DNA of 62,708 nucleotides, filler included, from Dugesia japonica (Eukaryota): NCBI GenBank assembly GCA_001938525.1. It is 5 parts of 5 records of this genome, joined end to end, with 100 filler letters (N's around TTAATTAATTAA, not from the genome) between each part and the next. Parts side by side here need not be neighbours in the genome. Positions count along the whole stretch, not along the records: positions 45,398 to 62,708 come from MQRL01631589.1; 4 more parts are not named here. One strand, 5' to 3'. This document shows positions 3,504 to 58,011 of the stretch, piece by piece. Within the stretch, counting starts at the first letter, position 1. Every line of letters starts with the position of its first letter. The position numbers and the translations under genes are program-made. Below the pieces are notes generated by a model that was given only the letters and a program-made list of their open reading frames with translations, was not told where the DNA came from and ran no database searches.

Positions 3504-5534
3504 ATTCCGACTTAATTAAATATTTTTGATTAATCCACAGTTTTTTACCACTAAAATTTGTTGCACTTTGTTGTAAATTAGATATTTGAATATAATTTGT
3601 TAAATATTACAAGGATAAGAATTAATTCTTCTTGACAAGCTTCTTCTTAAATATTTCTAATTCTGCAAATTCCAAAATAGATATAATAGATATAAATAGT
3701 AGATATAAACCCTCGATATAATATTTATTGCAAAAAAAATTTATAGCTACCAAATTACTAATAAAACCTTAATTACAACAAAACTAGTTGAACAATAATT
3801 TCAATTTAAAATAACTTTTACAATTATAATTTCCAATCCAAAATTAACAAATACAATCGAACCTATCAAATGTCACCCTATTTATAATCCCACCCTCTAA
3901 AAACAACAATTTATAATTCCAATATTTTGTCATTATAATTGATCTCACTGCAGTCGCATTCTTTATAGTCACTTTTCCAAATAGTCACTTCGTAATACGA
4001 ATATTTTGTTTAAAATGTCTCTTGAAAGTCACATTAGCTTGTGTTTTGAGATTAAAAATTAAAGAAAATTTGAGAATATGTTGTAAAGTGATTAATCTAA
4101 AAGCATTGTTCAATGTGCACATTTTTTATTTGCATTTAATTACTACAAAATGTTCACAGTTTCACAAAAGAGTAAACAGCTATCGCTCAATGAAAAATTG
4201 GAAATATTAACACTGTACTATCGAGAAGAAATTTTAAGCGCCTGTTTGTTGAACGTTCCGAATTGACCGATAGACTGTAAGCCAAATCCTGAAAAACAAT
4301 GTTATAATTTACATATTTGTAAAAGCTTGGCATCTTATTAAAGAATTATAACATATTTATCTATTTTATAGTAATTTCTTAATCATCAAATGAAAAATAT
4401 TACATACTACTTATACTATTGATGATGTGCTTAAATTAGTTATACGTATCAAATATACTATAGTATGATCAAGAGATATGTAATTAGTGAACTCAATTTC
4501 ATTTTCATTACTTATTCATTATTTGTACTAACTTTTTAAAATTTCAATGGACACTAATAGCAATTCAAATCTTGTATTGAAGTAACATTAGTTATTTGTA
4601 ACTAAGTGAAGTACAAGATCATACCAAGATCATACTAATTCCAATCTGTTAAATTATTAATATTTCTCACATTCTCTGGAGTATTTGTTATGTAATATAG
4701 TGACTAGTAGCAGCTTATTCAGCTTGTTTGTTGCATAATTAAGATTTGCCATGTGTTCTTTTCCATAAAATATACATCGTTCATCATCATCTATCCGCCT
4801 ATTTGCTTGCTCCTTCTCATTCTATACGTCTGCTCTGTGCTTGCACTTCTATTTTCTGTATTCCTTCTTTTCTCTAGATACTGAATAATCAGTTTGATTG
4901 GTAATCAAATCAATATCTTGTTGTATGTTTTTATCTCTTGACTATTAGTTGTAAATAATTTTATGGTTTTTTGATTATTCTATAACTTTTGGATACTCAA
5001 TGGTTTTCTTAGTATTTTATAGCTTTTTAGAGTTTTCTATGGTTTCACGAGTTGTATAGAATTGTATTTGATACATTGTTTTCATTAGATATGATAAGTT
5101 TAACTGATTTATTAAGAGTTTTACAAAGAAAAATAACAAAGGAATACAAACTTGATTAACTCATAAAACAATTTCATTACTTATTACACATTCTTTTTAT
5201 AGCAAATTCTCATAAATAATCATTAATTTCTTCAAAGTACAATCAAAATTTCATATAAATAGACTGATTTTCATTAATTCATAAAAAATTGCTTAAATTT
5301 AAACAGTAATACACTGGATTCATTACAGCATACACCAATGACTTACACTAATAAAATATGTATTAAGAACAATAAATCACACTAATGTTACCAAGTATTT
5401 TATCAATTCCATTAATTTCATACAAATTTCAACAGGTATACATTAATGAATATGTACACGTTATACAAATATAGACAGATACCATAAGTATACATTAAGT
5501 TATTATTATTACCAAGTCCAAAATCCATTTAAAA

Positions 5535-5535
<1 letters not shown>

Positions 5536-5576
<41 letters not shown>

Positions 5577-5626
5577 NNNNNNNNNNNNNNNNNNNNNNNN
5601 NNNNNNNNNNNNNNNNNNNNNNNNNN

Positions 5627-5694
<68 letters not shown>
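5536..5694. repeat. (ATT)n microsatellite spanning a gap
   Basis: Directly visible. Confidence 0.95.
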
Positions 5695-7099
5695 CAAGGC
5701 TAAAACCTAACAAGTCATATAAGTCTAGGCGTGTATACATGTATGAATTGGATTGAGTAATGCAAGTATAACATGATTGGTTGAATATTTATAAAAAATA
5801 GCTTTAATTTTAATACTTATATCATTAAAATCGAAGCCATCCTATTGAGTTTCCATAATATTAAGTTAGAAAATAATGAGATGGAGAAAGAACAGTGGCC
5901 ACCATATGATGAAGATACAGAAAAGGAATGGCTAAGAGAAAAAACTGATACAAGCAGAAGATAATAATAAAAATGTTGGACCGATTTATTTAATAAATTA
6001 GCATTAATTTTAATAATATACTCGTTTTATATAAATTTTAATGTGTCTACTCAAATGTATGCACTAATATCATACGTATACATACAAATATAATCAAATC
6101 TTTAATACAATTAATCATCATACATTTAATTTATTTAATAATTATACTATCCAAGTTCATTAAACACTATAAAACTAAATACAATCATTAAACCAATTAT
6201 TGAAAATTATAAGTAAAATATGCTTTGACCATTAGGATTTTATTCATAAAAGAATAGAAATGAAAGAAATATTTCTAAAAATTACTAAACGTTTTTGTTT
6301 TTAATTTTTAGATGAAAGAAAGAATGGAGAAAGCAGAGGTGCAATCAGAGAAACAGACTAGTTGTAGACAAAGGTGCACGCAGAAACGCAGGCAGATAGT
6401 GACGATGAAGAATAAATGACTATATTATTTTAAAAGTGATGCAAAATTATACTGAATTTCCGTGATGTATTAGAAATGTATGAAGAATTTATGTGATGTA
6501 TTTAAAATTAATACAGAATTTCCGAGAAGTGTTGGGAAATTTATCCAAAATTTCCAAGAAGTGTGTTAAAATTATTCAAAATTTCACATAAATCATAAAT
6601 TGTTATAAAGAAATATTAATAAGATATTTCATACTCTATTTACTTATATTTAAGGATTTCCATTGTAATCATAGATTTGTCTTCTGTTAGATTAATAAAA
6701 GTTGTTACACATATTTGTTTGATGGGTACAAGTCATCAATTCTTGACAATAGAGTAATTAAAACTTGAATGTTATTTAGTCATATTTCAGAATTATGTCT
6801 ACTATAATTTCAATTAAAATTAGTAATTAACTGTATTCGAATATTAAATATGTCTCGTATAAATTAATTGTTTGCAATAAATGTAATCTTTCCAAATTTC
6901 CAAAATTTGTTATTCGTATATACAAGTCAAATCATTTAGCAATTGTTTAATATTATAAAAGAAAATGTGTCAAGAATCGTATAACTTCGTGAAACAAGCC
7001 GATACATCCATTAATCAAATACAGTCAATAAATCTAGTACATTCAATGAACCCGATATATTCATTAAACCTACAAAATTAATTCATTTACGTATATGAC

Positions 7100-18129: not shown

Positions 18130-20200
18130 TACTTTGCAGCAGATTGGATTGAACTTGATTGAGATGGATTGACTTTTATGAGGAAAAGTATTACAATATA
18201 TGCCAGTATGGTAAGCTTAAATTTTTCTCTGTCCATACTCGTATATCATCCTTATTAGACAGAGCTACTTTCTTACTTTTAATACTGTAGAGCTGATGAT
18301 TTTTTGATGTTATTCGAAATTGCTATACTGAGACCGTTTCATGTTATTATTATTATAACAGTCAAGGTATGACTGATGACAAATGTCAGTGTTTTTTAAT
18401 GTTATACCTTTAGCTTTCATTGATTCATTTTCGCTAAGAAGGCTATAACACTTCGGTCTCAAAAATATCCATTCCTGATATTTCTTTCCTTTACTCTCAT
18501 CCTTGAACTCTCCAAATATTGAATTTAAACTATTGCTGTAAAGGGGATGGCTTGTGCTGTAATTGGACGTATCTAATAGCTGATCCTTCATCATTAATCC
18601 GGTTAGTTTTTCCAAACTTATATTTACAACTTCTAAGAAAAAACTTTCCATTTTGCTGGCTATTATATTTATCTTGTAATTCTCTTTCTGTCTGTACTTT
18701 TACAACCCAATATACTATAATTTGTACATTTTTAACTTTGAGAGCTTCAGTACAGTTTGCCCAATTTAGCTTGGTGCATCCAAACAAACAATGTCTTTAT
18801 TCATTAAAACAGTTATTTAGATAATCGTTAATTTAAGTTGTTTTTCTAAATTCAGCTTTTGATGTATATGCCATTATTTTTTAGGTGAATTACAATTTTA
18901 ATTCTGATTTACACTCTGATATTAATTTAGTGTTAACATATATTGTTTGAAAATAGATGGCTGGCTAAATTTGACACCTCTATGTACCTTTGTTATTTGT
19001 ACACCCAATTGCAAATAAATTTGCAGTAATCCCCAATGTATGAAATAATTTTCTTTCGGGTAATGAGTCAGCATTAAATTGTTTATCTTCGGTCCTGGAG
19101 CACTTTGATGTTCTGCTGCAACAGGTTAATCATTCAGTTCATCTTGAATTTCTGCTGGTTTATACCATAATAAATACTGTAATGTGTATTTATATGGCAA
19201 TGAGTTTAGGTCCTCTGTCTAAATTTTTCTAAATTTGAATAGATCCACTCAAAGTCTTTAACTTCTGACTTAATGCCCAATCATATAGACTGTTGATGTC
19301 GATGTATAACAAATCAGTTTTTCGTTATTAACAACATGGTGTTTATTTACAAATGTTAGTCCACCTCATATATCCTATTCAAAAAAAGTATAAATATCAT
19401 TATCAGTTAACAATTCAATTGGCTCATTTAATAACATCAATGTAGATGCCTAACTCATACCCGGGATGCCAAAGAATGTTAACGGCTCTAAATTATTGTG
19501 TGCCAATGATTTATTTCTAAACTGTTGAAAGAAATAGGCTAACAAAACACATCTAGTTTTAAATATATTACTATATAGTCCATTAGATTGTTGCATTCTG
19601 TTATATTCCACATTTTCAATGCTTTTTGATAATATTGCTTACTAACTTCCTTCTATCTCGTTGGCATTGTTGTTGTTTCAAGCAGAACTTGCAAACTAAT
19701 TGCATAATTATAAGGAAATATCCTCTTTGACATTGTTTTTCTTCATTGGCTTGTCCCTTTCATTGAATACAAGAGCGGACATGTATTCTTTATATTTTGA
19801 GGCTCGATTCTGATTTTTTCTGACTTTATCCTTTTTGAGTACACCTAAAATGCTGTATGTGAAACACATATTGTCATTATTCTGAAGATTTAGAACTGCT
19901 TTTTATTTTTCAAGTTTTTTCGGTGTTGGAATGTAGCCATGTCCAGATAGTCTGCTGATGTCGGTTACCTTTGTGATTTTAAAATTTATTTCACATATGC
20001 GGCTCAGTATCCAACTAAATCTGATTTCGCTTCTTATAGCTATATTGTCATTTAATTATTTTCTTGCATTTTCAAAAAAAAGAACCGCTAAATAAAACAG
20101 CTTGATTCAAAAATCTACAAGATTTTGCTTCATCATTTTTTTTAAATTCAACATTTATCCCAAATTGGATCTTAACATTTTTTAATTCTTCAATAATTTT
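18130..20200 (-). pseudogene. Protein-primed family B DNA polymerase (Polinton/Maverick/adintovirus type), decayed and internally deleted
   Basis: Minus-strand motifs in order: YIPTPKKL, LNLQNNDNMCFTYSIL, IFPYNY, GGLTFV, YIDINSLY, DTSNY, GEFKDE, LRPKCYS, KAKGI, KVALSNKDDIR. Confidence 0.92.
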
Positions 20201-21532: not shown

Positions 21533-24089
21533 ATGATTAAATTATTACTTAAGAAAATGAGTACTCAAATAATAAAATGTGATAATTGTAATAAAACATT
21601 TAAAAATCTAGCAGGAAAAATGGGGCATATAAAATCTAGAACATGTTACAGAGATAATGCGGCATTTCAATGTGAAAAATGTAATAAAATATTTAAAAGT
21701 GAAAATGGTCTACAAAAACATTTAAATTCTACAAAATAGGGTAATACAAATATTGTTCCATTGAAATGTGAAATTTGTAATAAAACATTTACAAGACAAA
21801 ATCACGCAAAAAGACATTACAATTCTGATAAACATAAAAAAATGTTACTTAATCAACTCCCAGGTAATGAAGCAATTAATAATAAAGTAGAAATTAGAGA
21901 TTTATTAAGAATGTATAAAGATTATCAAATTACTTATTTTAAAGATAGCAAAGTAGAGATGAAATATAATGTTGAAGAATTATATCCCATTCCAATTAGA
22001 AATATTAATGTATTTAAATTTGAAGTAAAAGAAATAATAAGAAAGTATTTTAGTTATGCTAAAAAGGTAGTTTTAAGAATGGAAGTAAAATGTAGATATA
22101 TAAAACAATTAAATAATGAATGTGTTGAAAGAGATTTAACTTCTTTCTCTAAAAATAAAAAATTTGCAATTGAAAGTGAAATATCCAATTCTGTTATTAA
22201 AACATTGTTTGAATTAGAAAGATATATTGAAGATAAAGATAAAGAAGGAAGTGGATGGTCAATGTCACAAATTATAGAGTATAAATTAGATCTTTCTAAA
22301 TATCAATCATTAGCCGGTGCTACATATTATAAATCACCATTTTCAAAACAAGGTGTAATAAATATAGAAAATAAAGATAATAAATGTTTCTTATATTCAA
22401 TCTTAGCACNNNNNNNNNNNNNNNNNNNNNNNNNNNNNNNNNNNNNNNNNNNNNNNNNNNNNNNNNNNNNNNNNNTGAATTTCCAATGAACATTGATGAT
22501 ATAAATAAATTTGAAAAATTAAACAATTATGAAATAAATGTATTTGGTGTAGATGTTAATAAAAAACTTGAACCACTTTACATTTCACATCATACAATAA
22601 AACCAGATACAACAGAAAATAAATGTAACTTATTAGTATATAATGATCACTATATTTTATGTAGAAATCTAGGTGTATTTTTACACCTAATAGAAACAGA
22701 AATTATCCATGTATCAGATGTATGAATTGTTATTCATCTGAAGAAGTTTTAAATAAACATCAAGATGCATGCATTAGACATAAACCTAATAACATTGTTT
22801 TTCCATATGAAGATTATTATTCATTTAATAAATTTTATCAAATAAACAAAATACCTTTTATTCTAATTGGTGATTTCGAAGCTTATACAAATTCAAATAA
22901 AAAACAAAAAGCTTTATCATTAGGTGTTTTTTTAAAATCAGAATATCAAGATTTATTAGAAAGCAAATATTATGAATTCTCAGGTGAAAACATTTATGAT
23001 GAATTCTTTAAGTTTTTAGATGACACTAATAATAAATTACAAGATATAAAAGATAATAAATGAATAATGGAATGTACAACTGAAGTTCCAGAATTGTCCG
23101 AAGGCACAAAATGTAGATATTGTAAAAAATTATTAAGAACTTCAGTTAAAGATCATAACCATTTTACAGGGGAATTTAGAGGGTGGTCATGTAACAATTG
23201 TAATGTAAATGATCTATCAATTAAAAATTTATTTATACTATTTTACTTTCATAACGCATCAGGTTATGATAATCATTTATTTTTTAAGGAATTATTATTA
23301 AAGTTTCCAAGTAGAATAAAAAAGATAATACCTCACTCATCTGACAATTACATTTCATTTGAATTTAGAAATATTAGATTTCTTGATTCAGCTAGATTGT
23401 TACCTTTTACATATGTAGAAGTAATGGGAAAATTATTAACACAATCTAATAATTATCCAATTTTAACATCATTTAATTTAAGACCGAAGAAAGCTATATT
23501 TCCTTATGAATATGTAAAAGGTGAAAGTATAGCAGAAGTAGAAGAATTATTAAAATCTAACAGAATACCAACAAAAGATGATTTCTTTAACACATTAAAT
23601 CAAAAAGAAATATCTGATGAAGAATATGCGGCATTTTTAATTGACTTTGAACAATTTGATAGTATGTGGTGTTACATGTTACACTATATGAAGTTAGANN
23701 NNNNNNNNNNNNNNNNNNNNNNNNNNNNNNNNNNNNNNNNNNNNNNNNNNNNNNNNNNNNNNNNNNNNNNNNNNNNNNNNNNNNNNNNNNNNNNNNNNNN
23801 NNNNNNNNNNNNNNNNNNNNNNNNNNNNNNNNNNNNNNNNNNNNNNNNNNNNNNNNNNNNNNNNNNNNNNNNNNNNNNNNNNNNNNNNNNNNNNNGTGGT
23901 TATTCTGGTGTTTGTGGTGAAAGACAAGTATTTTCACATAATAAAAATAAAGAACCATATACTACACAAATGAATAAATCTCAATATGAAGATTTAATAA
24001 AAATGATGAACACATATGAATTTATTCCAGATGAATATCTTGAAAATTTATTAGAAGATACATTTATAAAATATTTAGATGAAAATAGT
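21533..24089 (+). pseudogene. Polinton/Maverick-type protein-primed PolB with N-terminal C2H2 fingers and endonuclease-VII-like insertion; truncated by contig end
   Basis: Three C2H2 fingers, EGSGWS, INIENKDNKCFLYSILA, DFEA (ExoI), DHNHFTGEFRGWSCNNCN, FHNASGYDNH (ExoII), FLDS, FPYEY, GYSG and YLDENS (Pol motif A). In-frame stops at 21737 and 23061 and a frameshift near 22680. Confidence 0.93.
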
Positions 24090-24189
24090 NNNNNNNNNNN
24101 NNNNNNNNNNNNNNNNNNNNNNNNNNNNNNNNNTTAATTAATTAANNNNNNNNNNNNNNNNNNNNNNNNNNNNNNNNNNNNNNNNNNNN

Positions 24190-41655: not shown

Positions 41656-43708
41656 ATTATAGACCAGTAGAGAAGAAGGTGCTAACCGAGGATTTAGTTG
41701 ATTTAGACGCGTTATTGTACATGAATATATAAATAAATAGTCCTCAATGTTAATGTGATTTTTGGAGGGTTTGATAACGGTTATGTATGACCAGTATAAT
41801 TCGTTTGGTTGGTATTGTTTAAAGAAATACTGAGCATAGGATAGAGATTGCTGTTGGGGTTCATAGATCTAGTGAGTAAGACGCAATACCACAAAGTTGC
41901 GCTGAACCCGTGAAAAGAGAGGGGCATGATACCATAAATGCTTGTGGTTTTTAGGTGTGCCCCTAGACATGACAGTGAAATATTAAATATGGAAGTGAGA
42001 AAAAAGAGTTTAGAAAAAAAATTAAAAGATTAAAATCCTAAAGATCCAACATATATAAAAGGTATTTCTAAGTTTTGACATTAGATAAATTTAAAAATGT
42101 TCTGCAAATACTGATATTTGATGTTTTCCGTTTTGAATATGAACTTTTAAATTTGTTCAAAATATCCAAATTTATATGTAAAGTTTTTGTTTTAATAAAT
42201 CTTGTAATCAATTCGAGTTATGATATTGATGATCCGATGAGTTTTCCAAACTCATCTAACAACAACAATATTTAACGATTGCGACTGAATGTGTTTAATG
42301 TCATATTGTATATATTTCATTTAAATTGGATTCTAAAATTTCGTGATTTAATATAATCGAATACTTTCTACATTTATCAACAATTCTTTTTTTATCAATA
42401 ACTACTTTCATCAATATGGAATTTCATTTCGCTGATAAATTTTTGAAATACTTTTCCTTTATAATTAATATTGATATTCATTATTAGTACCTTTTCAAAT
42501 ATTTTTACTTGATTTGTTGAGATTAATTCGAGTACACTGAATAAAAAAGTTACTAAATAATCAATTAATTTACAATGNACAGATTAAGAAATGATGTTGT
42601 ATATCAATTTNTCGGTACTATTTGTAAAGAAAACCTCTGATTATATTCAAATTATTGAAATCAAATTTCAACAAAATATAATAGTATAGAGGGGCAGATG
42701 AAGAGCATGGATTGATTCAATATAAAAATTGTTTATATTGTTTATATTTTATATATTAATATATAAATTGTTTAGCAATATAAAAATGGCAATTATAATT
42801 AAATCTGATGATAATTTCCGAAGCAAGATATTGAAACCGGATAATATAATTATTTTTGAAGATCTTTACCAGGAAGAAAACAAAAAAAAGAACTTTGATT
42901 TTCTTTACTTAGCAGAGAAAAAGATTCGAAAATTTATTTTCATAGTTTCAATAAATTCATTCAATGCTTTACTATGGTCTATTAAATTATAATTTTTTTT
43001 AAATTAAGTCTGAAAAATTGTTTTAATTTAGTTTTGATTAAAACCTTTCATAAATGTTTTTTTTTTAAAAATTTAAAAAAAATTTAATGCATTAAAGTAT
43101 TAAAATATTTAGATACGTATTTTATTAATATTAAAATTTTTCTCTTATTTTTTTACTAATTTTTTAGTTATTTTAATTATTAAGAATCTTTGATAAAATG
43201 TTTATTTATTTTTATTAATTATTTATTTTTTAAATTATTTCTTTAATTATTTATTTTTAATTTTTTACCTTTAATTATTAGGATTATTTAAAATATTTGA
43301 AATGTTAATTATTGAAAAAACGTTTTTTTAAATATTTGAAGATAAACATTTTTTAATTATTGTAATTATTGAGAGAAGTTTTAATTATTGAAATATTTTT
43401 TTTAAATTATTGTAATTAGTGAAAATTTTTCAGAAAATTTTTAATTATTGTAATTGTTAAAAATCTCGTTAATCAAAGGTTTCTTCTCTTTAATTAATAT
43501 TTGTTCAATTTTTTTTCTGTGAAGTGTAGAAATGCAGCCTGTTCCTAATGTTTGCCAGGTAATATGATGATTTTCTGGTAAAACATTATGTTTGTTTTAA
43601 AAGTGTTTAAAGACCTCAATTTCTTTCAGTTATGGAAATTTTAAATAAGTTGTTTGAATAATATGAATTAACGTTATAATTTATATTTAATAAAGTTTCT
43701 AATCTTAG

Positions 43709-45297
43709 TTGTTATTAAAATATGATAGAGGACAAGGATATTACCACGCCAAAACTGTAAATGCGGTAGCAAGGCAACAGCATCAACGGAAAGTAATTTT
43801 AGATGCGCTACTAAAACAAGCGCAAGAATTAATAAATTTTAATGTCAGAAAATATGACGGAAAAGATTCAGAAGAATCTTCAAAATGGTTTAAGGATATC
43901 GAAGAGTGGACTATCGTTAGCGATTTTAATTTGATGGATTTGCTACTGTCAGACGAAGCAAGAATTCTTTGGAAAGCTTTCAAAAAGATTGAGATCACAA
44001 CGGAGGAAGCCAAGAGATGGTTTACGGACACATTTATGATAATAAAAATCGTTTTCANNNNNNNNNNNNNNNNNNNCAATGGTAAAACAAGAGACCGAAG
44101 AAAGATTCACAACATTCAAAATCAGAGTACGAAATCTGATAGATAATTTCATGAATTCAGGACTAAGTAAAGATGAAATAATTAAGGACGTATTTTCAAA
44201 GAAGGTTAAAAAATACAAAGTTTTGAGAAACATTGACAACACATCCTGATATTAAGATCATGGAAATGAGATCCGTAGCAAAGATTTACGAATCGCCGAA
44301 AAGTAATGATACAAAAAAGTTATGCAAATGTAGTAAAACCGTACATAAAATAGAATTGAAGAGGATAGACATAAAGTACGTGTAAATAATTTGCCAGTAA
44401 AAAGAGTATATGAGAGGAACACACAACAAGTGATGATAGAAGATAGAACACAGGCGATGAGGCCAAAACCAACAGTATTAATGAAATATTTGGCAAGATG
44501 TTATTTTAATAGACAGAGAAAATAAACAGAGAACCTTGTGAAGAAAAACTCCAAGACGGACAATGTTAATGCGGAGAACATGTTCCGCAATATATTGCAA
44601 TATCAGGTTGCAACAAACCGTTAATTTCGACATAAGCATGCAAGAACAGTTTAAATGCATTAAAAGACAAGCTATGTAGTGCTCCAGTATTAGAATATTC
44701 CAGAGAAGATCGGATATTTATTTTAGACACTGCTACTAGTTTTGATGCTATCGGTGCAGTCCTTAGTCAATCCAAAGAAAAAAATGAAGTGGTATAAACG
44801 TATGAATTTATACATTTGACAGCTCATGAAAAAGCATACTGTGTGACAAGAGCTATTAGCTATACACGAATTTGTACAATAATTCAAACAATATTTGTAT
44901 GGAAAGAGATTTCTAGTAAGAACGGACCACAAAGCATTGNTGTTTTTGAACAACACAAAGAAACCAAATAGTCCCCAACTCCAGACGTGGATGGCGAATT
45001 TGGGAGAGTATGATTTTGAACTGAAGTATAGAAAAGGTGAACAACACAACAAAGCGGATGAGTTGTCAAGGCTAAAGGAGAGTTTATGTAAACAATGTAG
45101 CATGAAACACATAGACGCAAAAGGAGAAAAGTAAGTGTGAAACATATCAATGGAATTCAATGAGACAGAAGATTCAAAAATACAATGTTGTATATCAATG
45201 TTGTAAAAAGTAAGTTTAGAGACTAAAAAGAGTGATCAAGGAAGTTACTGGAATAAACTGCCCTTGAACACTCAAGAAGTAAGACAAAGTATCCTGT
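43709..45297 (+). pseudogene. Ty3/Gypsy gag plus RNase H remnant, internally deleted
   Basis: Gag-like KYDGKDSEESSKWFKDIEEW; LCSAPVLEY...FILDTATSFDAIGAVLSQ; YGKRFLVRTDHKAL...YRKGEQHNKADELSR. Confidence 0.9.
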
Positions 45298-45397: not shown

Positions 45398-46090
45398 ACA
45401 GTGAACAGCTATTACCCTGGAGTAGTAATACTACCATCAGACAGAAAATTGGAATAATCAAGTGTAAAAGATTATAAGAGCTGAAAGACTATTTATAAAT
45501 GAAGAAATAAGATTGACTTCACTCAGGTTGATTAAAAAATAAAATTTCTATATAATGGTTACCCAATCGTATCTAAATATTTATCCTCAAATACAAAATT
45601 TAATAAAATCAAACAAAAGACAAACACAATAATTAAAAGACCTTTTATTAATGAGAAATGTAGCCAAATCATGGAAAATATAATTTAAAAATCAAAACTC
45701 AAACACAATCCGAGAATTATATTTAAAACTCAAGCACTTTTGGGTATCCAATTACAGAAACCAAGACAGAACTTTCGTGGTTCCACATGCATTTGTGATG
45801 GTAGAAATATATGCAATTAAAAAAATATCACTTAAAAAATAACATAAACCTTATGTAAGGATACATATATAGGAGAAACATGCAGAGCCATCCGTACAAG
45901 AATTAAAGAACATCTCAAACAGAAAGAAAGTGAAGTCTTCAAATTCTTTCAACAGAAACATAATATTTTACCAGAAAAATATCATATTACATGGAAAACA
46001 TTAGGAACAGGCTACATTTCTACACTTCACAGAAAGAAACATGAACAAATATTAATTAAAGGGTATAAACCTAAGATTAATATGATTTTC
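45398..46090 (+). mobile_element. Penelope-like element C-terminus with GIY-YIG endonuclease
   Basis: LPWSSNTTIRQKIGII, NGYP, CICDGRNIC, CKDTYIGETCRAIRTRIKEHLK...E..LIK..KPKIN. Confidence 0.92.
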
Positions 46091-49000
46091 AATAATTACA
46101 ATAATTACAAATTAAAAAAAAATTAGTATCAGTATAATTTTTTAAAAATTTTTTTAGTAAAATACGAAATATTGATAAAATTTTTTTTATATAAGACTTG
46201 AGAGAAGCTTTTGAATGTTTATTAAAAGTCAATGGAAAAATAATTTTATTTTACTATGTTAATATTTTAATGTTTTGGTATTTTGATATTTTAATATATT
46301 TATTTTTTAAACATTTGAGAGATTTTCAATTCAATTTGGCTAAAAAAGATTTTTCGAGATTTAATTTAAAATAAGAAAATTTATAATTTAAATAGACCAA
46401 TAAAATTTTAATAAAATATAAAGAATTTTGTAACAAAGATCTATTATCGTTTTCAATCTATCAAAAAGTCATCATTCCTAAAGAAGACAAGTGTCGAAAA
46501 TTTGAATTTCTATAAAAGTACATTTCACTTTGATCGAAGCTTTTTCTTTATTTTAATGAAATCTCAAATGCGATCAATGGTTAAGTCCAACAATTATTCT
46601 NGCAATAATTGTAATTATAAAATCCTTTCACTTTAGTTTATTCTCAGGAGAGTTTCTCCTTCCAAGTTCATTCCTAACTTATTTCAGCGAGTAACACAGA
46701 TAATCTTGGTGTTTTGATATTGTTGTTTTAGAAATAAAAAAGTGAATCTTTTCTCGACAGTCTCTTTCAACTTTTTCAACGAAATAATTTAAATTAATTT
46801 CTGTAATTTTTGAAATCTTTTGTCTCCTCGTTTGTCTAACGTTTCTCCCAATGATAACCAACGATATGAGGTTGATTGTGGAACATTAAGCGTATGTGTA
46901 AGTTCTCTCTAGTCTCAATTCATGCTTGACACAGCTCGTATCTGCTTTTATTTAGATTCTTTTTCTTTATTTTTATGGTCTTTCAATTATATTATTAAAT
47001 TTACAATAAATTTAAATTAACTTTAAACGATTTATTGAAAACACAAGGCTTTTTTTCTTATTTTATTATTTATTTTAAAATTTAATGTTCTCATATAGAA
47101 GTTTACTATTCTCATTTTGAAAATAAAATGGCATAGATCCAGGTCTAGAAAGTTTTATCTGAAAAGATGCTTTCAAATTGACATTATTCAGAAGTAAATG
47201 TTTAAAAGGATTTTGAGTTATTGTAGATGATTTTTATCTGTTTATTGAATTTTCAATAATAAATTCCTGTCAAATAAAATTCAACACATTTATTTAAAAA
47301 AAACTTATTAAAGAAATTTACTTTAATAAAAAAATACACTTTAGATTATATTAACTTTACATTAAATATAAATTCTTACATATTGAATTTACACGAAATT
47401 CATTTTTAAAACTATGTAAAATTCTAAAAGCTAAATTTCAACAAACTTTACAACGCAATTTAATTTTTCCATTCAATTCTTTTTAGATAACTTACTAAGA
47501 TAGGTTTCCTGTGGACAACCACTCTAGAAATTGTAACTTTATTTTTTACTTACCTAAAAATATTTTTAAAATGTTATTACTTAAGGAAGCCAGTGTAGAA
47601 TTTAAAAATTGGAAATTAAAATTTTTGATGTCAAGTGTACGGCTTTGTGTGAATTCCAATATTAATATGATAATCAGTTTGTAGACTAAATAAAACTGTC
47701 ATTATTTAAAATTATAGCACAGAGATCTTTACTAATTGATGGAGTTTGCAGTAATTTTGTGTTCTAATTTAAATTAAAAAACAGAACCCAATAATATTGT
47801 ATGTACTCAAGTTTGTTCCACTTAGATTTTTACAAATTTCTAATAAATAGATTTAAATTGAGAATAAATCCATTACGTTTTTAAGTAATTTCCAAAATTT
47901 TTTTGAAATTATTCACTTATTAGTTTTTACATAATTCCGTGACGGATGCGATTTACAGTTTGCTGCATAAATTAAAATTTGTTACTTTATAATACAGTTG
48001 TATGAATATTTCTCTGAATACTATTATATAGTTTTAGTGGTGCAAGTTTGATAAAATACATTATAATAAACAGATAATTCATCTAAAAGTTTGAAATTTT
48101 GTATAATTTATTTTTAATCGTTATAAATTATTGGAAATTTTAATTAAAAAATATTTTATAGTGACTATTTAATAATTAAAGTCGACACAAATGTCATATT
48201 GATTATATATTTTATAAACCATTTTTTATAAATAATTACAATTTTGTCACATTTGTCGTTGACATGTTTTCAAAGTGACCATCCTGAAAAATGTTTATAG
48301 TTTATTTATAATAAGTGTCGCCTTTTCATATAACATAATAAATTCACTGAATACTCTGTGTAATTTATCAACTTTCATTTAAAGTGATTAATAATTTATA
48401 ACATAAGTGATGTAATTTTTAAATTCCCTTTAATAAAATTTATTGAAGTGAATAGTAGTTAAAAATTTTGATTGTAATTGTAAACAGTAATATCATCTAA
48501 TTAATTATTTTCGGAACATTTTTGTAATACTTATGTATTAAAAATAGAAGAATAAAAATTGAAGATAACACTTAAATTCAGTTCATTACACAGTTTGTAC
48601 CCACATTTCAAATTTTTGTAAATCAACTTGAAATTATAAATTTTACAAACCTAGAAATGATTTCAAACTATATAAAAAGAAGGATAATTGATTCATTTAA
48701 ATGGCCATTCAAAAAAAGAAATAGGTTAATAGGTTAAAATCCTTGTTGGATTTTACCTTTGTATATTTTACCTTTCGATTTTATAGCAAATTCAATATTG
48801 AATACGTAACATAAATAGATGAATGGAATGAAAGGCTTATTACTATTGATTATAAAGAAAGGAGATTGGGTTTTAATAAGGATGATGTTGAAATATCTTG
48901 AAAAACAAACTTACAAATCAAATTAATGTATCATGATTATGATTTGATATTTGGCAATCTAGAAGATTCAGAAAGATTTGGATTCGATAATTTAAATAAT

Positions 49001-49348: not shown

Positions 49349-49662
49349 TCAACAACTCCCAATTGTATAGAAACTGGCATCAGTGCCTAATATGAATTCT
49401 TTGTTTATGTTGGGAAAACACAATATTGGCCCAGTCATTAGAACTTTCTTTAGATACTCAAAAGTATAGTTTATTTCATTTGTCCATTCTAACGTCTTGT
49501 TGATTGGTCCGGTATACAACTGTTCTAAGATTGTTGATTTTTTTGCGTAGTTTTCTATAAACTTCCTGTAGTAATTACAAATTCCTAAGAAACTTCGCGA
49601 CATCTTTACACAGTTAGATTTTCCAAATGTCCTAATTACTTCTATTTTAGACGGATTACTTC
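49349..49662 (-). pseudogene. Ty3/Gypsy RT thumb/connection, downstream half of a split pol
   Basis: SNPSKIEVI...RSFLGICNYYRKFIENYAK...LCFPNINKEFILGTDASFYTIG. Confidence 0.92.
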
Positions 49663-50278
49663 TGTTGGGGCGAAACACCCAGAGGAATGAAAATCAAGGG
49701 GTCAGGAATAACCCAATATCAAAATAGAAATTACGAGAAGGAACATGGTAAGAAAAGCAAGTATGTAAAATCCAGACAATAATAGTGAGCGAAAATGGAA
49801 AACTCGGAAGATCAAATTAAATGTGATTAATTATAATAATCGCAAAATTANNAAAATTATTAAAGAAAATAAGTAACAAAAGAAGAAATAAATACAAAAA
49901 AATAACAATTAATTTAAACGAAAAATTAATTAAAATTGAGACAAAATCAGTTTTATGCAAATAACTCTGGTTAGAAAAGTCGGAAGAAATCCGGGTGAGA
50001 AAATATGAAAAGAAAACAACAAGAAGTATGGAACTTGTAAGGAAGAAAAATCTTACCACCATCCAGAGGATTACTGCAGGGTTTCCTAGATCGAACCAAT
50101 CAGATATCTAAAAATAAAAATAAAACAAAGACACAATTATCATGTGCCAGTCTAAAAATAACTACCGATCAGAACTCCAGAATTCTTGGAAGATTGGCAC
50201 CAGATCCAATAGAATTCAAATAATTCAAATTAAAAATAACCAGCCAACAGGAATACAGTCGGGATGCAACTAAAGGCA

Positions 50279-50286
50279 TATATAAG
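50279..50286 (+). promoter_or_regulatory. Candidate TATA box of the LTR-like insertion
   Basis: TATATAAG with a TCA initiator-like motif about 30 bp downstream, a donor-like TTG|GTAAAT near 50421 and AATAAA at 50569. Confidence 0.45.
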
Positions 50287-51782
50287 CCGCTACAAACTTA
50301 GGTGAAAATCATCATCAAATCAAACTTTTAATAACAACTGAGCTTAGAAGCTATATTCTCGATTTAAAAAATTATTTAGCGAATATTACTGGTACGAACG
50401 TCTCAAATTATTATAAAGTTGGTAAATAAGATTCCTTGTAGAATTACAGGAAGCCGACGAGAAAATTACAATCAGGAAGAGAGAATTATTCACCAATCCG
50501 ATACTCTCAAAATTATCCGAGAATTTGCCAGTCGTTGAAAAAACCGTTGCAGAAATCTTTCAGTTAATAATAAAAAGTAAAGTATTATTTGGATTGTGTA
50601 AAAGTGGTATATTTGATAAACTATACATATTATTTATTCTAATAAAAATTAGTTTATGTTACATAATCGTAAACTGTGATTTTCTTAGTTAGAAATATTG
50701 AATGATAAATAAATTGTAAATCACCTTGCATTTGGTAAGAAATTAAATTAAAAAATTCCTTGAAACCATTAATCATTGCTTTAGAATAAAATAAATAATA
50801 GGATATGCGCAAATATAGTAAATCAACAAAATCTTGTATATTTCGGGATTAATCAGAAAACAAGAACCGGATTATAGAATTTAGATAAGTTTTAATTTCC
50901 TTCAATAATTTTATGACCAAGGTCTAGTTGCATAATCAGATAACCAATAAGGAAAGCAAGTTCCAATTATTTATTAAGAAAATCAATAAATTATAACTCC
51001 CTCCAATTGACTCGAACTATAAATAATCATAGAGAACTCAGTGGTAAAATAATTCCCAAAATATCAGTAACGCTCGCTGTTCAGCTTAACTCAACTTGAT
51101 CATTATTGGCAGCCAATCTTTCGTGACCACACTCTCAGGGAGTGAGAAATTCCAAACTGTTTATGCACAATGCAAAATAACCAAACTGCTTTATCTAAAT
51201 TACGAAAATCCGATAGCACTACTAGGTTTGACGAATTCAGAGTCATACTATTAGCAGGTGTGTATATAATATGTCGATTTACTCATAGTAGTTATTTGAT
51301 GCCGTCTACTTAAATCGGATTCCCTGCTATTACACACCTACACGAGACTAAATTAGTAAACACACCTTCCAACACCAATAAAATCAGTATAATTAAACCA
51401 CATCACTAGGCAACTGCAGCGAACATAAATTCAAACTTAGTAGAAAAAGGAAATTTTTTGTTATTGTACTTTTACTAGCATCATTCTATTATTATTGATA
51501 TTGTGGTAGTTATGGTAACCAGTATTACGGGGATTCAAATCATTAGTAATGATAAAAACATTTGAGCGGAATGGGTATCAACCTATTGAAGCAATCAAGA
51601 ATTTAGGATAAAATTTGACTAGTTATTATTCAGGATCGGGATTGTTGATACTACCCGAACTAACACCAACGATATGGTCATGTTTTCGAACGTCATGATG
51701 TGTGTCTTTAACCCTGATTAAAATGATTTTGCACTACTACATATAATGGTGGTGATACTAATTATTATTTTTTTTTACTAAG

Positions 51783-51913
51783 CTGTTACGACCCTAATTC
51801 ATAACCTCCCTCTGCTGATTATCTTTTTCATGTTACAATCCTTAGCGACAATAACGGTTCGGGACAATGATTTGATCAGGCAAAGTAAAGCAAGTGGTAC
51901 AGACTGCAGTTAA
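51783..51913 (+). CDS. Short phase-1 orphan exon with a hydrophobic stretch
   Basis: T-tract-ACTAAG acceptor, then VTTLIHNLPLLIIFFMLQSLATITVR...DCS*. Confidence 0.3.
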
Positions 51914-51932
51914 TAGTTCTTTCTTTTAGCTC

Positions 51933-52115
51933 ATGCCAACAGAATTGTATGGGGTCCTGCGATGGATAAGGAAGCGACGTCAAGTTAGCAGGTCGAAACA
52001 ATTAATAGCTCACTTGCTGACCAAAGGAGAGATCGAGCACCCCGATGAAACTGACCTTCAATGTTTTGCGGAGATGTTTTCGTTGGAAGTAGGGGTCGAC
52101 TTAGATGAAGAATGA
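51933..52115 (+). CDS. Orphan 60-aa ORF (basic N-terminus, acidic C-terminus)
   Basis: TTCTTTCTTTTAG|CTC-ATG; GC-richer island; ends DLDEE*. Confidence 0.45.
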   Translation: MPTELYGVLRWIRKRRQVSRSKQLIAHLLTKGEIEHPDETDLQCFAEMFSLEVGVDLDEE

Positions 52116-52252
52116 TATTTTATTGACCACCCGATGATCAAACATTATCTATGAAAAACTTGGTGTTTTATTTTAATTAATTAGATGAACGATCTTCTTT
52201 TGATGTTTTAATGCTGTGTTTGAATTTTCTTATTTTCTTTTGTTTCTTAGAA

Positions 52253-52603
52253 ATGGAGTCAATATGGGAGAGGACAGTAGACAGGCGTACCCGCCGAATC
52301 ATTTTCCGGCGATACCACAATCCATACAATCTCGATACGGGGATTTTAGTAAACCGATCCAATCTACCTCCCATAGAAGCGGCTGTTGCTCGTATTCAAA
52401 ACTTTGGGGAGCGTCTGAACTTCCGCCAGTGGAATGGGCCTGAGCGTAACCACGCCACTCCATTCCGTTACCAACCTCCAGCTCCCCCACCCATAGTTCA
52501 GGCTTTCCTTACCAATATGCTCTGGGGAGTTAGGGAGCCTTCCGGGGTAGTGGATGCTGAAAATACGGCTCCTGTGAGTGACAATGATAACAACTACCCA
52601 TAA
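52253..52603 (+). CDS. Orphan 116-aa Arg/Pro-rich ORF
   Basis: TTTTCTTTTGTTTCTTAG|AA-ATG. GC content rises sharply at the acceptor and falls after the stop. Confidence 0.55.
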   Translation: MESIWERTVDRRTRRIIFRRYHNPYNLDTGILVNRSNLPPIEAAVARIQNFGERLNFRQWNGPERNHATPFRYQPPAPPPIVQAFLTNMLWGVREPSGVVDAENTAPVSDNDNNYP

Positions 52604-52750
52604 ATTCTGTCTTTTACTTGAAAATATAAATAGGTGTTTTTTTTATTATGATTTGTATTATAGTTGCTTGCGTGGTTAAGATAAATTGGTGTCCTATAGT
52701 GAATATATTATTGAGTTTTGTAATCTTCATAATTAATACAATTATTTCAG

Positions 52751-53055
52751 TGCACTCCTCTCTGAATAAATCACAGGCCCCGCATAAAAAGTTACGAGAG
52801 TCTAGCGAAGACCTTGATCTTACATGGGACCTGTACAGATTAGCCAAACGTCGTTGGGAAGCCGATGTCGCTAACGCAGAGGCGAAGGTTAAGCGTTACA
52901 AAAAGAAATGTTTATCTTTCAAAACAGAATCCGAGGCCTCTCACCAACTAGAGAGAGCATGGAAAAACCAATTAGAATCCCTAGCCGATATTATCCGGTC
53001 CTGCAATGACCGAGAAAATAAACTGGTCAACGACATACTAAAGCTAAAAAAATGA
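52751..53055 (+). CDS. Orphan coiled-coil terminal exon (no in-frame ATG after the acceptor)
   Basis: ATTATTTCAG|TG in phase 1, about 100 codons. A likely frameshifted tail ends at 53108; AATAAA at 53128. Confidence 0.55.
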
Positions 53056-53224
53056 TGCCTTTAGCCACTCTCATGGTGGATAAAGGTGTGCAGATCCCTC
53101 GTCCCTAGTTGTTGTCTTAACATGCTTAATAAAAATTTTATTTATCTTTGTTTATTCAATTAGTCCGAAATTAATTACATTACCTTCCATAAATTACGAA
53201 TAGCCATCCATTAATTTTTTTTAG

Positions 53225-53607
53225 TGCCACAGGTAACATTTCCCAATAATTTACGTTGTTGTCATCGGATAATGAAACGCCTCTTGATAGAAAGACATCT
53301 AAAAAAGAAGGCTGGCCGGACCATCCTCAAGCATTTGGCCCAGAGAGATAAGTTAATAAAGCGATTAGACCTAGTCGTAAAGAAGCAGAGCGACTTGGCG
53401 AATCAAACTAAGGCTTTAGAAGCAGAGACGAAACAACTTTTACAACGAAAAATTGAATTCCTTAAACAATACATCGCCGATCTCTCCCGCCAAATAGGCA
53501 ATCCAGCTTGGATTCAGTGGGATGAAAACGACGATATCGCTGCTTTTAACCTTTCGGTGACCGACCCGGCCCAGTGGTTGGATTCAGGGGCGCTGGATTT
53601 ACTATAA
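53225..53607 (+). CDS. Orphan coiled-coil terminal exon/ORF (about 127 aa)
   Basis: TTTTTTTAG|TG in phase 1; heptad-like LANQTKALEAETKQLLQRKIEFLKQYIADL; AATAAA at 53623. Confidence 0.55.
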
Positions 53608-53860
53608 ACAATTTTATATTTGAATAAAACGTATATATTTAATATCGTATTTTCTTTCTTTTACTGATAATATTAGGGAAAAGAATGAACCCGAATACAA
53701 AGGTTTATGGGTGTGTACCTCCCATTAAGAGAGAGGTCAATCGCCATGAACTGAATACCTACCCTAGGGCGGTAGGTTAAATTCTTTAACGGGTTCCCCT
53801 GAGGGCTGTTGTTCCCCAGTCACAATTTTCTTACCATCCAACTCAGGTGGAACCCCAACA

Positions 53861-54110
53861 CTTCTAACACCATCCCAGCTAATAATGTGTCCAAGAAATT
53901 TGATTTCTCTTTGAAGAAACTGACACTTGTCCGTAATTAAACCAGACTTCATTATTTCCGCCAATACATTGTCAATTACTTCATAGTGTTGATCATTATT
54001 GTTCATAAATATCAGAATATCATCAAGATGTACAATGGCTTCATTAATTCTGCCTACCACTTTTGTTTTCATCTCCTGAAATGTTCTTAGTTCAGCTGCG
54101 ATACCAAGCC
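53861..54110 (-). pseudogene. Ty3/Gypsy RT core, upstream half of the split pol
   Basis: VHLDDILIF...KCQFLQREIKFLGHIISWDGVR. Confidence 0.92.
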
Positions 54111-54309
54111 ACGTGGATCACGCATCATGTTTTTGGTGACGTCTTGAAATAAGTCTTGATCAATGTTGACATTTAGTTTTTTTGATGAGATGACTTAATC
54201 AATTTGATATGATTTGAATCTCTCTATCAACCATATCCAAATGTGTGAACGTGTCAATTATCAATCAATCCGAATTATTTGAATAGTTTACCGAATTATT
54301 CAAATTTTA

Positions 54310-54780
54310 AAATTTTTGGATGATTTGCTCAGGAAATTCTTCGAGAAGGTTGATTTTTGTGTGATTTTAGGCAATTATTTCTTCGGGGTTGATCAGTTTG
54401 GGCAAACTTGGTCGGTTTTAGGTAATTTTTGAACGATTTGGTTAGGAATTTCCTCGGGGAGGTCGAATAAGGTTAATTTTTGATTGGTTCAGGGGAATTT
54501 GGTTGATTATTTCCTCGGGTTTGAGCAGTTTGGGCAAATTAGGCTGGTTTTAAGTAATTTTTGGGTGATTTGGTCCAATATTTCCTCGGGAATTGATGAT
54601 TTTTAGGTGATTTAAATAAAATTGGTTGAAAATTTCCTAAGATTTGGTTAATTTTTTGGGTGATTTGGTTGAAAGTTTCCTCGGGATTGGTAATATTTGG
54701 GTGATTTGGTTAATTATTTCCTCCAGATTGGTCATTTTGGGTGATTTGGTCAAATATTTCCTCAGGAATGGTTTACATGG
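54310..54780. repeat. Degenerate minisatellite (about 35-40 bp units)
   Basis: Repeated TTGGGTGATTTGGT...ATTTCCTCGGG. Confidence 0.85.
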
Positions 54781-55637: not shown

Positions 55638-56556
55638 TAATATTATGACAATAATAGTTATAAAAATATTATTATTAATAATATAATAATAATATTATTA
55701 TTAATATAATAATAATATATATAATAATATTATTATTAATATAATAATAATATATATAATTTTATTATTAATATAATAATAATATATATATATATATATA
55801 NNNNNNNNNNNNNNNNNNNNNNNNNNNNNNNNNNNNNNNNNNNNNNNNNNTATAAGGATATGAAACCAAAAATCCTAATTGTCACAACGAATTAATTAAG
55901 TTCATTTAAAAAATTTTGCATAGGCATATTAAAATATAATAGGTATATATGGACATGTCTGGATTCGAATGCAACGTTGAGTCAAAATTTCAATGCAATC
56001 GGTGAATTATTTTTAGATTTTGAATAAACGAACATTTACACTTTTATTTATATAGATAATATTATGACAATTATAGTTATAAAAATATTATTATTAATAA
56101 TATAATAATAATAATATATATAATAATATTATTATTAATATAATAATAATATATGTAATATTATTATTATTATTAATATAATAATATATATAATAATAAT
56201 ATATAATATTATAATAAAATATAATAAGATTATGAAAATAGTATGTATTATAATAATAATAATAATTATTTTTAGCAAATCGATTTTAATAATCAATAAT
56301 ATTATTGTACAAAACCTAATTCCGTCTCTTTGTACATAATAAATAAATATTACTTTCTATAGGCTTTCATAATTTGCGAACAATTTAATAAACTCAGAAA
56401 ACTGTAAATATCGGTAACACACACCTGAGTTAAGCACATATGTAGGTTGTTGAACAATTGATTTATATTTTAACAGCGTCAATATGTTTAATATTATTCA
56501 CTGTTCTATTAAATAACAAAGTTTACTTTTTCTAAATTTATTTGAATAAGTGTCAA

Positions 56557-58011
56557 ATGGTTGATTCGAAATATGAAACATTTGAAGATGAAAGTGATGC
56601 TAACAGTTATTCGGATTATTTTAAGTGCGAAAATAAATTGAACAAAATCCATCCAAAATATACTATTTCAATTTGCTGTGCAACTTGGGGATTTTTAACT
56701 GGTGTTGAAAGAGCCATTATTTTACCGACTCTCTGGTTATACTTTGTCACTAGGTTTGGTAGTCAAGCAGCAGCATCATATTATGGTGCAACTTTAGCTG
56801 CATTTAATTTATCAGTATTCATATTTGCTCCTTTATATGGATTTTTGGCGTATAAAGGTTTCAGAACAAAAGCTTTATTGGTGGTCAGCAATCAGCTAGA
56901 AGTTGTTGGAAACATAATTTACTTTGTTGCTTCAGAACCTTGGTTGGTTATGTTGGGAAGGTTTATTGCTGGAATAGGGTCTGGAAGTGAAGTTCCTTTA
57001 TACGCTGATGTAGTTCGTGTAACAAATCCTGAAGAACGAACTCCTTATATTGTAATTCTGTTACTCGCCAGACAAGTTGGATTAATAATTGGACCAGCAG
57101 CAACTTTGATTTTGCATCCAATAAAATTTCAAATTGGTTCAGTTTCCTTAAACATTTATAATAGCCCAGGATTCCTCATGGCAATATTATGGTGTGTTCA
57201 AACAGTTCATGTGCTTATTAGCTATCCCGACGTTGATAAATCAGGAGCATTATTGAAAAGTGGATCACAAGGAAAGAAAATAAATGAAATGATAATACAT
57301 AAAATATATGAAAAAAATATTGAACCAGATATGTCTAGTCGAAGGAATTCTGAGTTATGTCAAGAATCGAATAAACCAAAACCAACATTTTTTGACAAAT
57401 CAAAAAAAGCTATTAATAAATTTTCGAACTATGCTTATTATAATACATTGTCGCTTTTAGCAATTGTATTCAGTTCATATTTTTCTTTAATAAGTTTAGA
57501 AGCTGTATTACCTCCTGTGACCGTTAGATATTTTCAGTGGAATGAAGTCCACAACAGCTATGTGTATTTAGCAGCAGGGATTTTGGTAATTATTATTTAC
57601 GGAATTTTACAATCAGTATCTCGTCATATTAAAGATAGAACAGTACTTTTAATTGGGTTAATATGTTTAATCATTTCATATGCCTCGATTTCCTTCACTC
57701 TTGGTTTCATTAATTCCGAAGAAAAGATGCTTTACATTGTATTATTATCTTGCGAAATCTTTCTTCATATATTTGGTTTATCGTTGGTTATTGCTTGTGG
57801 TGAATCATTATTTACTAAATCTCTTCCACCAGAAGAAATGGATTTGGCACAAACTGTATTAAGAAGCACTATAAATTTTTCTCTTTTAATTGGACCGTTT
57901 ATCGCTGGATCACTTCAGATTTATCCGTACTTGGTTTTTATTATTTTATTTTTATTAATGTCATTTTCTTTACAATTTTTGGTTTTGAGATATAATTTAT
58001 TTAACATTTAA
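56557..58011 (+). CDS. Major facilitator superfamily transporter, MFSD8/CLN7-like; single coding exon, 484 aa from the first ATG
   Basis: Intact ORF with about 12 hydrophobic segments in two bundles around a hydrophilic loop. Motifs IILPTLWLY, GRFIAGIG, GLIIGPA and IYNSPGFLMAILW resemble the MFSD8 family. AATAAA overlaps the stop. Orthology is not established, so no symbol is given. Confidence 0.92.
   Translation: MVDSKYETFEDESDANSYSDYFKCENKLNKIHPKYTISICCATWGFLTGVERAIILPTLWLYFVTRFGSQAAASYYGATLAAFNLSVFIFAPLYGFLAYKGFRTKALLVVSNQLEVVGNIIYFVASEPWLVMLGRFIAGIGSGSEVPLYADVVRVTNPEERTPYIVILLLARQVGLIIGPAATLILHPIKFQIGSVSLNIYNSPGFLMAILWCVQTVHVLISYPDVDKSGALLKSGSQGKKINEMIIHKIYEKNIEPDMSSRRNSELCQESNKPKPTFFDKSKKAINKFSNYAYYNTLSLLAIVFSSYFSLISLEAVLPPVTVRYFQWNEVHNSYVYLAAGILVIIIYGILQSVSRHIKDRTVLLIGLICLIISYASISFTLGFINSEEKMLYIVLLSCEIFLHIFGLSLVIACGESLFTKSLPPEEMDLAQTVLRSTINFSLLIGPFIAGSLQIYPYLVFIILFLLMSFSLQFLVLRYNLFNI

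Follow-up and report, generated by a model that had tools for sequence, protein, structure and literature searches.

A 4,198-bp insert at positions 49663-53860 of a 62,708-nucleotide window of DNA from Dugesia japonica (the window being the whole stretch analysed) begins with TGTTGGGG and ends with CCCCAACA. We read this element as a solo giant long terminal repeat (LTR) of Ty3/Gypsy type, from a planarian-like flatworm, that carries accessory genes, and we put the probability of this reading at roughly 60%. It is preferred because the insert has the ends of an LTR integrase product and a target duplication of LTR type, and because assignment to the Ginger or the TRIM/LARD elements fails.

The insert is a real, precisely bounded feature that integrated into an older Gypsy reverse transcriptase (RT) with a duplication of four bases. 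Its perfect terminal inverted repeat is exactly 8 bp long (TGTTGGGG/CCCCAACA), and similarity between the two ends stops past the first 8-11 bases. With the breakpoints fixed, an 8-bp repeat would arise by chance with a probability of about 3e-5, and a 4-bp duplication with one of about 0.009. The Gypsy RT/RNase H remnant split by the insert is recognised by Pfam on both sides, the flanks being consecutive pieces of one minus-strand frame. Four of 24 listed sequencing runs were compared with the window, among them the DNA runs X1 and X3 and the raw poly(A) RNA run X15. An empty-site joint that omits 4,202 bases (the element plus one copy of the duplication) was present in two contigs of X3, and the same joint was present in 29 raw reads of X15 with 24 different starts. 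The likeliest source of these contigs and reads is other copies of the host Gypsy family that lack the insert. The 8-bp ends, the Pfam flank pieces and the empty-site joints bear out the preliminary description, which had been made from the sequence alone and had taken the boundaries to be exact from the CTTC duplication and the rejoined Gypsy RT.

Both ends match the LTR integrase signal TGTTRNR..YNYAACA, a consensus of LTR ends (PMC3601003; here and below, papers are cited from excerpts). The 4-bp CTTC duplication falls within the 4-6 bp range of LTR elements (PMC12440569). Between the insert ends, no second TGTTGGGG was found with up to one mismatch allowed, and no direct repeat common to both ends was found. 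This indicates one unit rather than a small two-LTR element. TRIM and LARD elements are non-autonomous LTR elements with two direct terminal repeats around an internal part, and membership in them fails for an insert with neither a direct repeat at its ends nor a second LTR start inside. Within the window, no second copy of the element was found. The element has a 12-mer, built around GTAAG, close to each end in inverted orientation (49745-49756 and 53826-53837; P 0.017, in one of six comparisons). Words similar to this 12-mer are also seen at 50056 (minus strand) and 50735.

The insert is repeated in the genome over its whole length, unevenly. Summed contig depth per bin, a rough measure that is not a copy number and whose bin means conceal short spikes, was at least 81 in X1 and at least 84 in X3 in all 21 of the 21 bins wholly inside the element; single contigs listed for comparison had depths of 9-49 (X1) and 8-18 (X3). 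Summed depth was 4,336-6,664 (X1) and 4,965-6,154 (X3) in the 5' block (bins 49748-50308), fell about 50-fold in the bin starting at 50309, remained at 81-215 (X1) and 84-209 (X3) throughout the low-depth middle (50309-51929), and was 81-393 across 50309-52365. It was about 1,500 over the 3' part of open reading frame (ORF) B, in bin 52366-52552 only. Over ORF C it was 1,579/1,830, against 122/163 in the preceding spacer, and over ORF D 2,514-3,343, against 205-242 in the preceding spacer. In the bins covering ORF C, ORF D and the 3' part of ORF B, depth is at least 10 times that of the two spacer bins. As the 5' block contains a deep bin of only 20% GC, low GC alone does not have the power to explain the shallow spacers.

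A short spike after ORF C raises one bin mean to about 40,000 (40,855), and depth is about 146,000 at 53811 in both X1 and X3. Two short stretches (~52960-53060, located from the bin mean, and around 53811) match a repeat of extreme depth, and both may belong to a single related family of very high abundance. To an order of magnitude, the depths in X3 suggest 10-20 copies that are alike over the middle and hundreds that share the 5' block and parts of the ORFs. No large internal deletion was seen among the 15 of 197 joints listed, so that the abundant relatives seem to carry a different middle rather than none. The uneven depth suggests a diverged family conserving promoter, ORFs and ends. Among the 40 of 1,326 variants listed, most were letters at which the window copy differs from nearly all others, and no ratio of nonsynonymous to synonymous change (dN/dS) is derivable from them. 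The whole length is repeated in X1 and X3 alike, with the 1.9-kb middle present in far fewer copies than the ends and the ORFs.

The ORFs of the insert look real, judging from their excess over shuffled sequence and from a family depth above that of the spacers. The longest stop-free internal frame has 141 codons. Three plus-strand frames of 130-141 codons are present, with none of at least 100 aa on the minus strand, and when the sequence was shuffled 500 times at each of three block sizes, with local dinucleotide composition kept, three such frames arose in 0.6-1.2% of trials (P ~0.01). Seven internal frames of at least 88 aa gave no Pfam match above the curated cut-off, in agreement with the earlier remark that the insert has no gag, RT, integrase or transposase motifs. 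That it contains several orphan ORFs also held, with three or four small plus-strand ORFs for which no protein, family or fold relative was found. The frame of ORF C is open from 52630 and would need an upstream exon or the ATG at 52648. A canonical poly(A) signal lies within 120 nt of the stop codon for ORFs C and D and the weak ORF E only, and not for A or B; that of ORF D is an AATAAA 16 nt downstream of its stop.

None of 13 candidates from a protein search with ORF B was a relative, and Atlas was blank for it. For ORF C, neither the one candidate nor any of five viral stretches was a relative, and the Atlas matches were unnamed and of low recognition. No PHROG match was obtained for ORFs A, B and C (ORF A was scanned against PHROGs and by exact look-up alone), exact look-up found none of six proteins, Rfam gave no match, and the left-end 20-mer of the element was not found in metagenome contigs. 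Fold searches at E 0.001 returned nothing for ORF D against viral structures or for ORF B against PDB, the latter a weak test because the structure model of ORF B is poor (predicted local distance difference test score, pLDDT, 57). Several candidates were rejected. The one match of ORF D among 1.84 billion is a repetitive coiled coil, and two metagenome loci (GC 0.43-0.44, with long unrelated ORFs) match its coiled coil only; both were set aside as generic. Resemblances of the ORF B N-terminus to a WW domain and of ORF D to a bZIP protein had no support from Pfam.

The features of the insert and of its target are collected in the table. The first 600 bp (49663-50262) are A-rich, with an AT skew of +0.34 to +0.45, and the TATA-like box at 50279 sits about 30 bases ahead of the depth drop. 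Donor-like sites occur in the low-depth middle at 50422 and 50735, and in the 3' half GC-richer blocks alternate with AT-rich spacers. The last 190 bp fold on the plus strand with z = -2.0 (7 of 200 shuffles as good) and on the minus strand with z = -1.3. AATAAA occurs 14 times on the plus strand of the element and 7 times on the minus strand. The TATA-like and poly(A)-like signals reported earlier are present, but such motifs are common here and ORFs A and B have no canonical poly(A) signal within 120 nt of the stop. Most of the window has a GC content of 17-33%, in line with the Schmidtea genome, which is more than 70% AT (PMC11410931).

Table. Coordinates of the insert, its target site and its internal features (positions along the window)
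Feature	Position	Strand	Basis
Host Gypsy RT/RNase H remnant, downstream piece (target, outside insert)	49352..49658	-	Pfam RT_RNaseH_2, 4e-8
Left copy of target duplication, CTTC	49659..49662	.	Sequence; joint omitting 4,202 bases
Left 8-bp short inverted repeat, fits TGTTRNR	49663..49670	+	Consensus from PMC3601003 (excerpt)
A-rich, high-depth 5' block; putative U3-like enhancer/promoter	49663..50308	+	AT skew, depth
TATA-like box TATATAAG, putative promoter	50279..50286	+	Sequence
Low-depth middle with four AATAAA at 50569-50790	50309..51929	+	Depth, motifs
ORF E, weak ATG-less frame	50426..50692	+	Sequence
ORF A, 60 aa, ATG 3 nt behind T-rich AG	51933..52115	+	Sequence
ORF B, 116 aa, ATG 2 nt behind strong acceptor-like site; orphan	52253..52603	+	Sequence
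ORF C, coiled-coil-like exon behind acceptor-like AG (phase 1); orphan	52751..53055	+	Sequence
ORF D, 111 aa, basic N-terminus, 74-residue helix, short hairpin; orphan	53272..53607	+	Model, pLDDT 77.6
3' terminal block, mildly structured; stretch at ~53811 shared with a very abundant repeat	53608..53860	+	Fold, depth
Right 8-bp short inverted repeat	53853..53860	-	Sequence
Right copy of target duplication, CTTC	53861..53864	.	Sequence
Host Gypsy RT remnant, upstream piece (target, outside insert)	53865..54117	-	Pfam RVT_1, 2e-8

Under the solo-LTR reading, we infer that a full element with two such LTRs integrated at this site and that LTR-LTR recombination then removed its gag-pol. With the plus strand as the presumed sense strand, the first 650 bp would act as U3 with the TATA box at 50279, and the 3.5 kb behind this box would be transcribed. 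Small accessory proteins (B, C, D and perhaps A) could arise when a short leader is spliced to one or another of the acceptors. Selection on the ORFs would have acted in the replicating parent family, not necessarily in the window copy. By analogy, C and D may be helical proteins of dimerisation type, which would most likely regulate host or element transcription or host defence.

Several observations weigh against this reading. If the promoter lies at 50279, R and U5 together would span 3.5 kb and hold many poly(A) signals, which is unusual for an LTR. No copy next to a primer-binding site, a polypurine tract or gag-pol was found among the 24 of 2,545 loose ends listed, none of which lay at the termini. 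ORF C lacks an ATG after its acceptor, an exon upstream of it was not identified, and the listed joints contained no GT-AG splice. The depth profile has exceptions: in the bin averaging 40,855, depth is only 217 at 52949, and within ORF B it drops to 108 at two positions, 52578 and 52596. ORF A is just 2-3 times deeper than the middle, as is ORF B in its 5' part. Finally, depth in X15 (about 25% read) was 0-1 over most of the interior, with a maximum of 3.5. Of the giant protein-coding solo LTR as first proposed, the integrase-type ends, the whole-length repetition, the flatworm host, the lack of a long inverted repeat or Ginger target and the real-looking ORFs stand, but copies flanking gag-pol, by which an LTR is defined, were not seen among the loose ends listed.

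On the flanking RT family, depth in X15 was 28-45 per strand. X15 lends no support for activity of the element in untreated animals, and no holder on record as RNA was listed in the run search. Run X9, whose RNA type is a guess and which may be DNA, covers all 30 bins; its ratio to X3 was 0.015-0.36 in 20 of the 21 internal bins and 1.43 in the remaining one, where ORF B starts, which is a hint only. Gypsy-type elements of planarians are silenced by SMEDWI-2 and rise on its loss (PMC8532177), so silence does not refute coding capacity. The wider proposal that every solo LTR left in the genome is a self-contained expression unit is unsupported, X15 being nearly blank and the 1.9-kb middle occurring in far fewer copies.

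The best of the other explanations, unlikely in our judgement, is a complete non-autonomous, gene-carrying unit with LTR-type ends that has no gag-pol form and depends for its movement on an integrase, or a transposase resembling one, acting in trans. The Schmidtea mediterranea repeats GLT and GLT2 may be such units; they are named on their own beside BURRO1 and Gypsy8 (PMC8532177). The parent element was not seen, and the arrangement of a promoter at one end, ORFs, and a poly(A) signal near the other is what a self-contained transcription unit would have. A variable middle between conserved ends is also compatible with non-autonomous families, and the 12-mer inverted near both ends (49745, 53837) points in the same direction. 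The Ginger elements have TGTNR ends and a 4-bp duplication like those seen here, but they also have terminal inverted repeats (TIRs) of 40-270 bp (Ginger1) or 50-180 bp (Ginger2), targets of CCGG/CCGT or RTATAY, and an integrase-type transposase (PMC2836005), all of which are absent from the element. Its 8-bp repeat falls far short of these lengths and CTTC is neither type of target, so that membership in Ginger1 or Ginger2 fails and the long-TIR or Ginger-type element, which the preliminary description had named as a case that would overturn it, was not encountered. The listed joints, free of large internal deletions, likewise speak against a unit moved in trans. Moreover, units with TG..CA ends and no mobility genes commonly derive from solo LTRs.

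A solo LTR in which the ORF-like blocks do not work as genes but were captured or have decayed, with the unit a mosaic of parts from different repeat families, is in our view improbable. In its favour, depth varies more than 100-fold along the unit and its two short spikes are shared with a very abundant repeat; no protein relatives in any database searched and almost no X15 reads are also in keeping with it. However, the excess of ORFs is confined to one strand, acceptor-like sites stand directly before A, B and C, and deep ORF bins alternate with shallow spacer bins. A matching layout is found at 40.5-41.7 kb of the window and, by eye, in the GLT2 probe.

A solo LTR of minus-strand retroviral sense, with A-D as antisense accessory genes in U3 (HTLV HBZ, of human T-lymphotropic virus, is an antisense gene of this kind) and a promoter at the far end, is very improbable: the insert ends are symmetric, the last 650 bp of the minus strand are T-rich after AATAAA signals at plus-strand positions 50633 and 50970 (TTTATT), and tolerance of the many plus-strand poly(A) signals would be accounted for, but the sole strong TATA-like site faces the plus direction, the plus strand is A-rich as retroelement sense strands usually are, and the 3' end folds somewhat better on the plus strand (z -2.0) than on the minus strand (-1.3).

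Elsewhere in the window, a second region at 40480-41985 also has ORF blocks rich in GC that alternate with AT-rich spacers. The last of these ORFs gave the best of 324 pairs when compared with ORF C (z 5.9, 0 of 200 shuffles), a weak likeness whose score is owed in part to hydrophobic translated spacer; plain BLASTP found nothing. An 11-mer identical to the right end of the element lies inverted at 41852 (expected 0.004), with no significant similarity past it. The region may be a distant relative in decay, together with a nested terminal piece.

A satellite-like tandem array (54270-54772, unit ~40 bp), very deep in all four runs, begins shortly after the end of the host Gypsy remnant. An intact single-frame gene of the major facilitator superfamily (MFS) of transporters lies at 56536-58011 (gene 56557-58008). 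It is MFSD8-like by the names of its flatworm relatives; there are 19 relatives, and all 12 of the 12 named ones are flatworm proteins. A decayed Gypsy remnant at 43709-45134 combines a gag-like frame, assigned by eye, with an RNase H piece (Pfam RT_RNaseH). Broken frames at 21740-24137 and 18310-18699 resemble by eye what we take to be a protein-primed DNA polymerase B of Polinton type, and a frame at 34566-35129 resembles by eye what is presumably the integrase end of a BEL/Pao element. At 45848-46126, a GIY-YIG-like frame scores just below the Pfam cut-off; we presume that it is of the kind found in Penelope-like elements.

LTRs are ordinarily non-coding, the sag gene of mouse mammary tumour virus (MMTV) being a cited exception (PMC4667437). 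If the solo-LTR reading is true, coding LTRs would also occur among invertebrate Gypsy elements, here with several conserved orphan genes in an LTR of 4 kb. LTR-LTR recombination, which normally disarms a retroelement, would then leave accessory genes behind in many copies. The element would also offer a possible identity for planarian repeats that already serve to mark PIWI loss (GLT2), and its proteins would be candidates in the cell defects that follow desilencing of such repeats. Should there be no gag-pol parent, the unit would represent a new kind of integrase-moved element. A broader proposal, which we hold tentatively and regard as rather doubtful, is that planarians possess giant LTRs (or elements consisting of the LTR alone, with no gag-pol form) that make up a large family and serve as multi-gene cassettes, in which alternative splicing from one promoter would yield 3-4 small orphan proteins. 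Hundreds of dispersed solo copies would in that case be expression units kept latent by PIWI silencing, and the tissue-specific GLT transcripts that appear after smedwi-2 knockdown would be their mRNAs. A literature search found no description of ORFs inside planarian LTRs; Repbase and the primary Burro paper lay outside this search and may describe them.

Among known systems, Burro (GYPSM1) of S. mediterranea is more than 30 kb long with internal parts of up to 25 kb, and it has thousands of copies and accessory ORFs (PMC6431247). The likeness consists of a flatworm host, multi-kb LTRs (implied by the Burro sizes) and the accessory ORFs; the excerpt of PMC6431247 does not place the latter inside the LTR. 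One BURRO1 primer, whose position in the element is not known, had no match in the window with 3 mismatches allowed. The Ogre elements of plants, whose LTRs are 1.9-6.5 kb long and whose extra ORFs have no known function (PMC6431247), combine multi-kb LTRs with extra ORFs as seen here; they differ in that their extra ORFs are described in the internal region.

By eye, the element resembles GLT2, an undescribed planarian repeat. Probe sequences for GLT and GLT2 are given in Table S1 of PMC8532177, and GLT2 is transcribed in neurons on loss of SMEDWI-2 (same excerpt). For the structure or class of GLT, our literature search found no description, with a single mention in the excerpt of PMC10954484. 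On its reverse strand, the first 400 letters of the GLT2 probe show GC-rich coding blocks between AT-rich spacers, with an acceptor before a block. As in ORF C, the block begins at a phase-1 AG|TG and has PHKK followed by an AEAxV motif, although the spacing between these motifs differs by 6 residues (22 versus 28). One GLT2 primer had no match in the window with 3 mismatches allowed, indicating that the two are not the same family at close identity.

Finally, MMTV-like betaretroviral LTRs encode sag and survive mostly as solo LTRs (490 of 527 contigs; PMC4667437), and they share with the element, as we read it, a protein-coding LTR whose gene persists in solo LTRs. Whereas MMTV has one gene in U3 and is a vertebrate retrovirus, the element is a 4.2-kb unit in the Gypsy-type setting of an invertebrate, with 3-4 small ORFs that apparently lie downstream of the main TATA box. 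Given the precedent of MMTV sag, a protein-coding solo LTR would be a variant and not a new principle.

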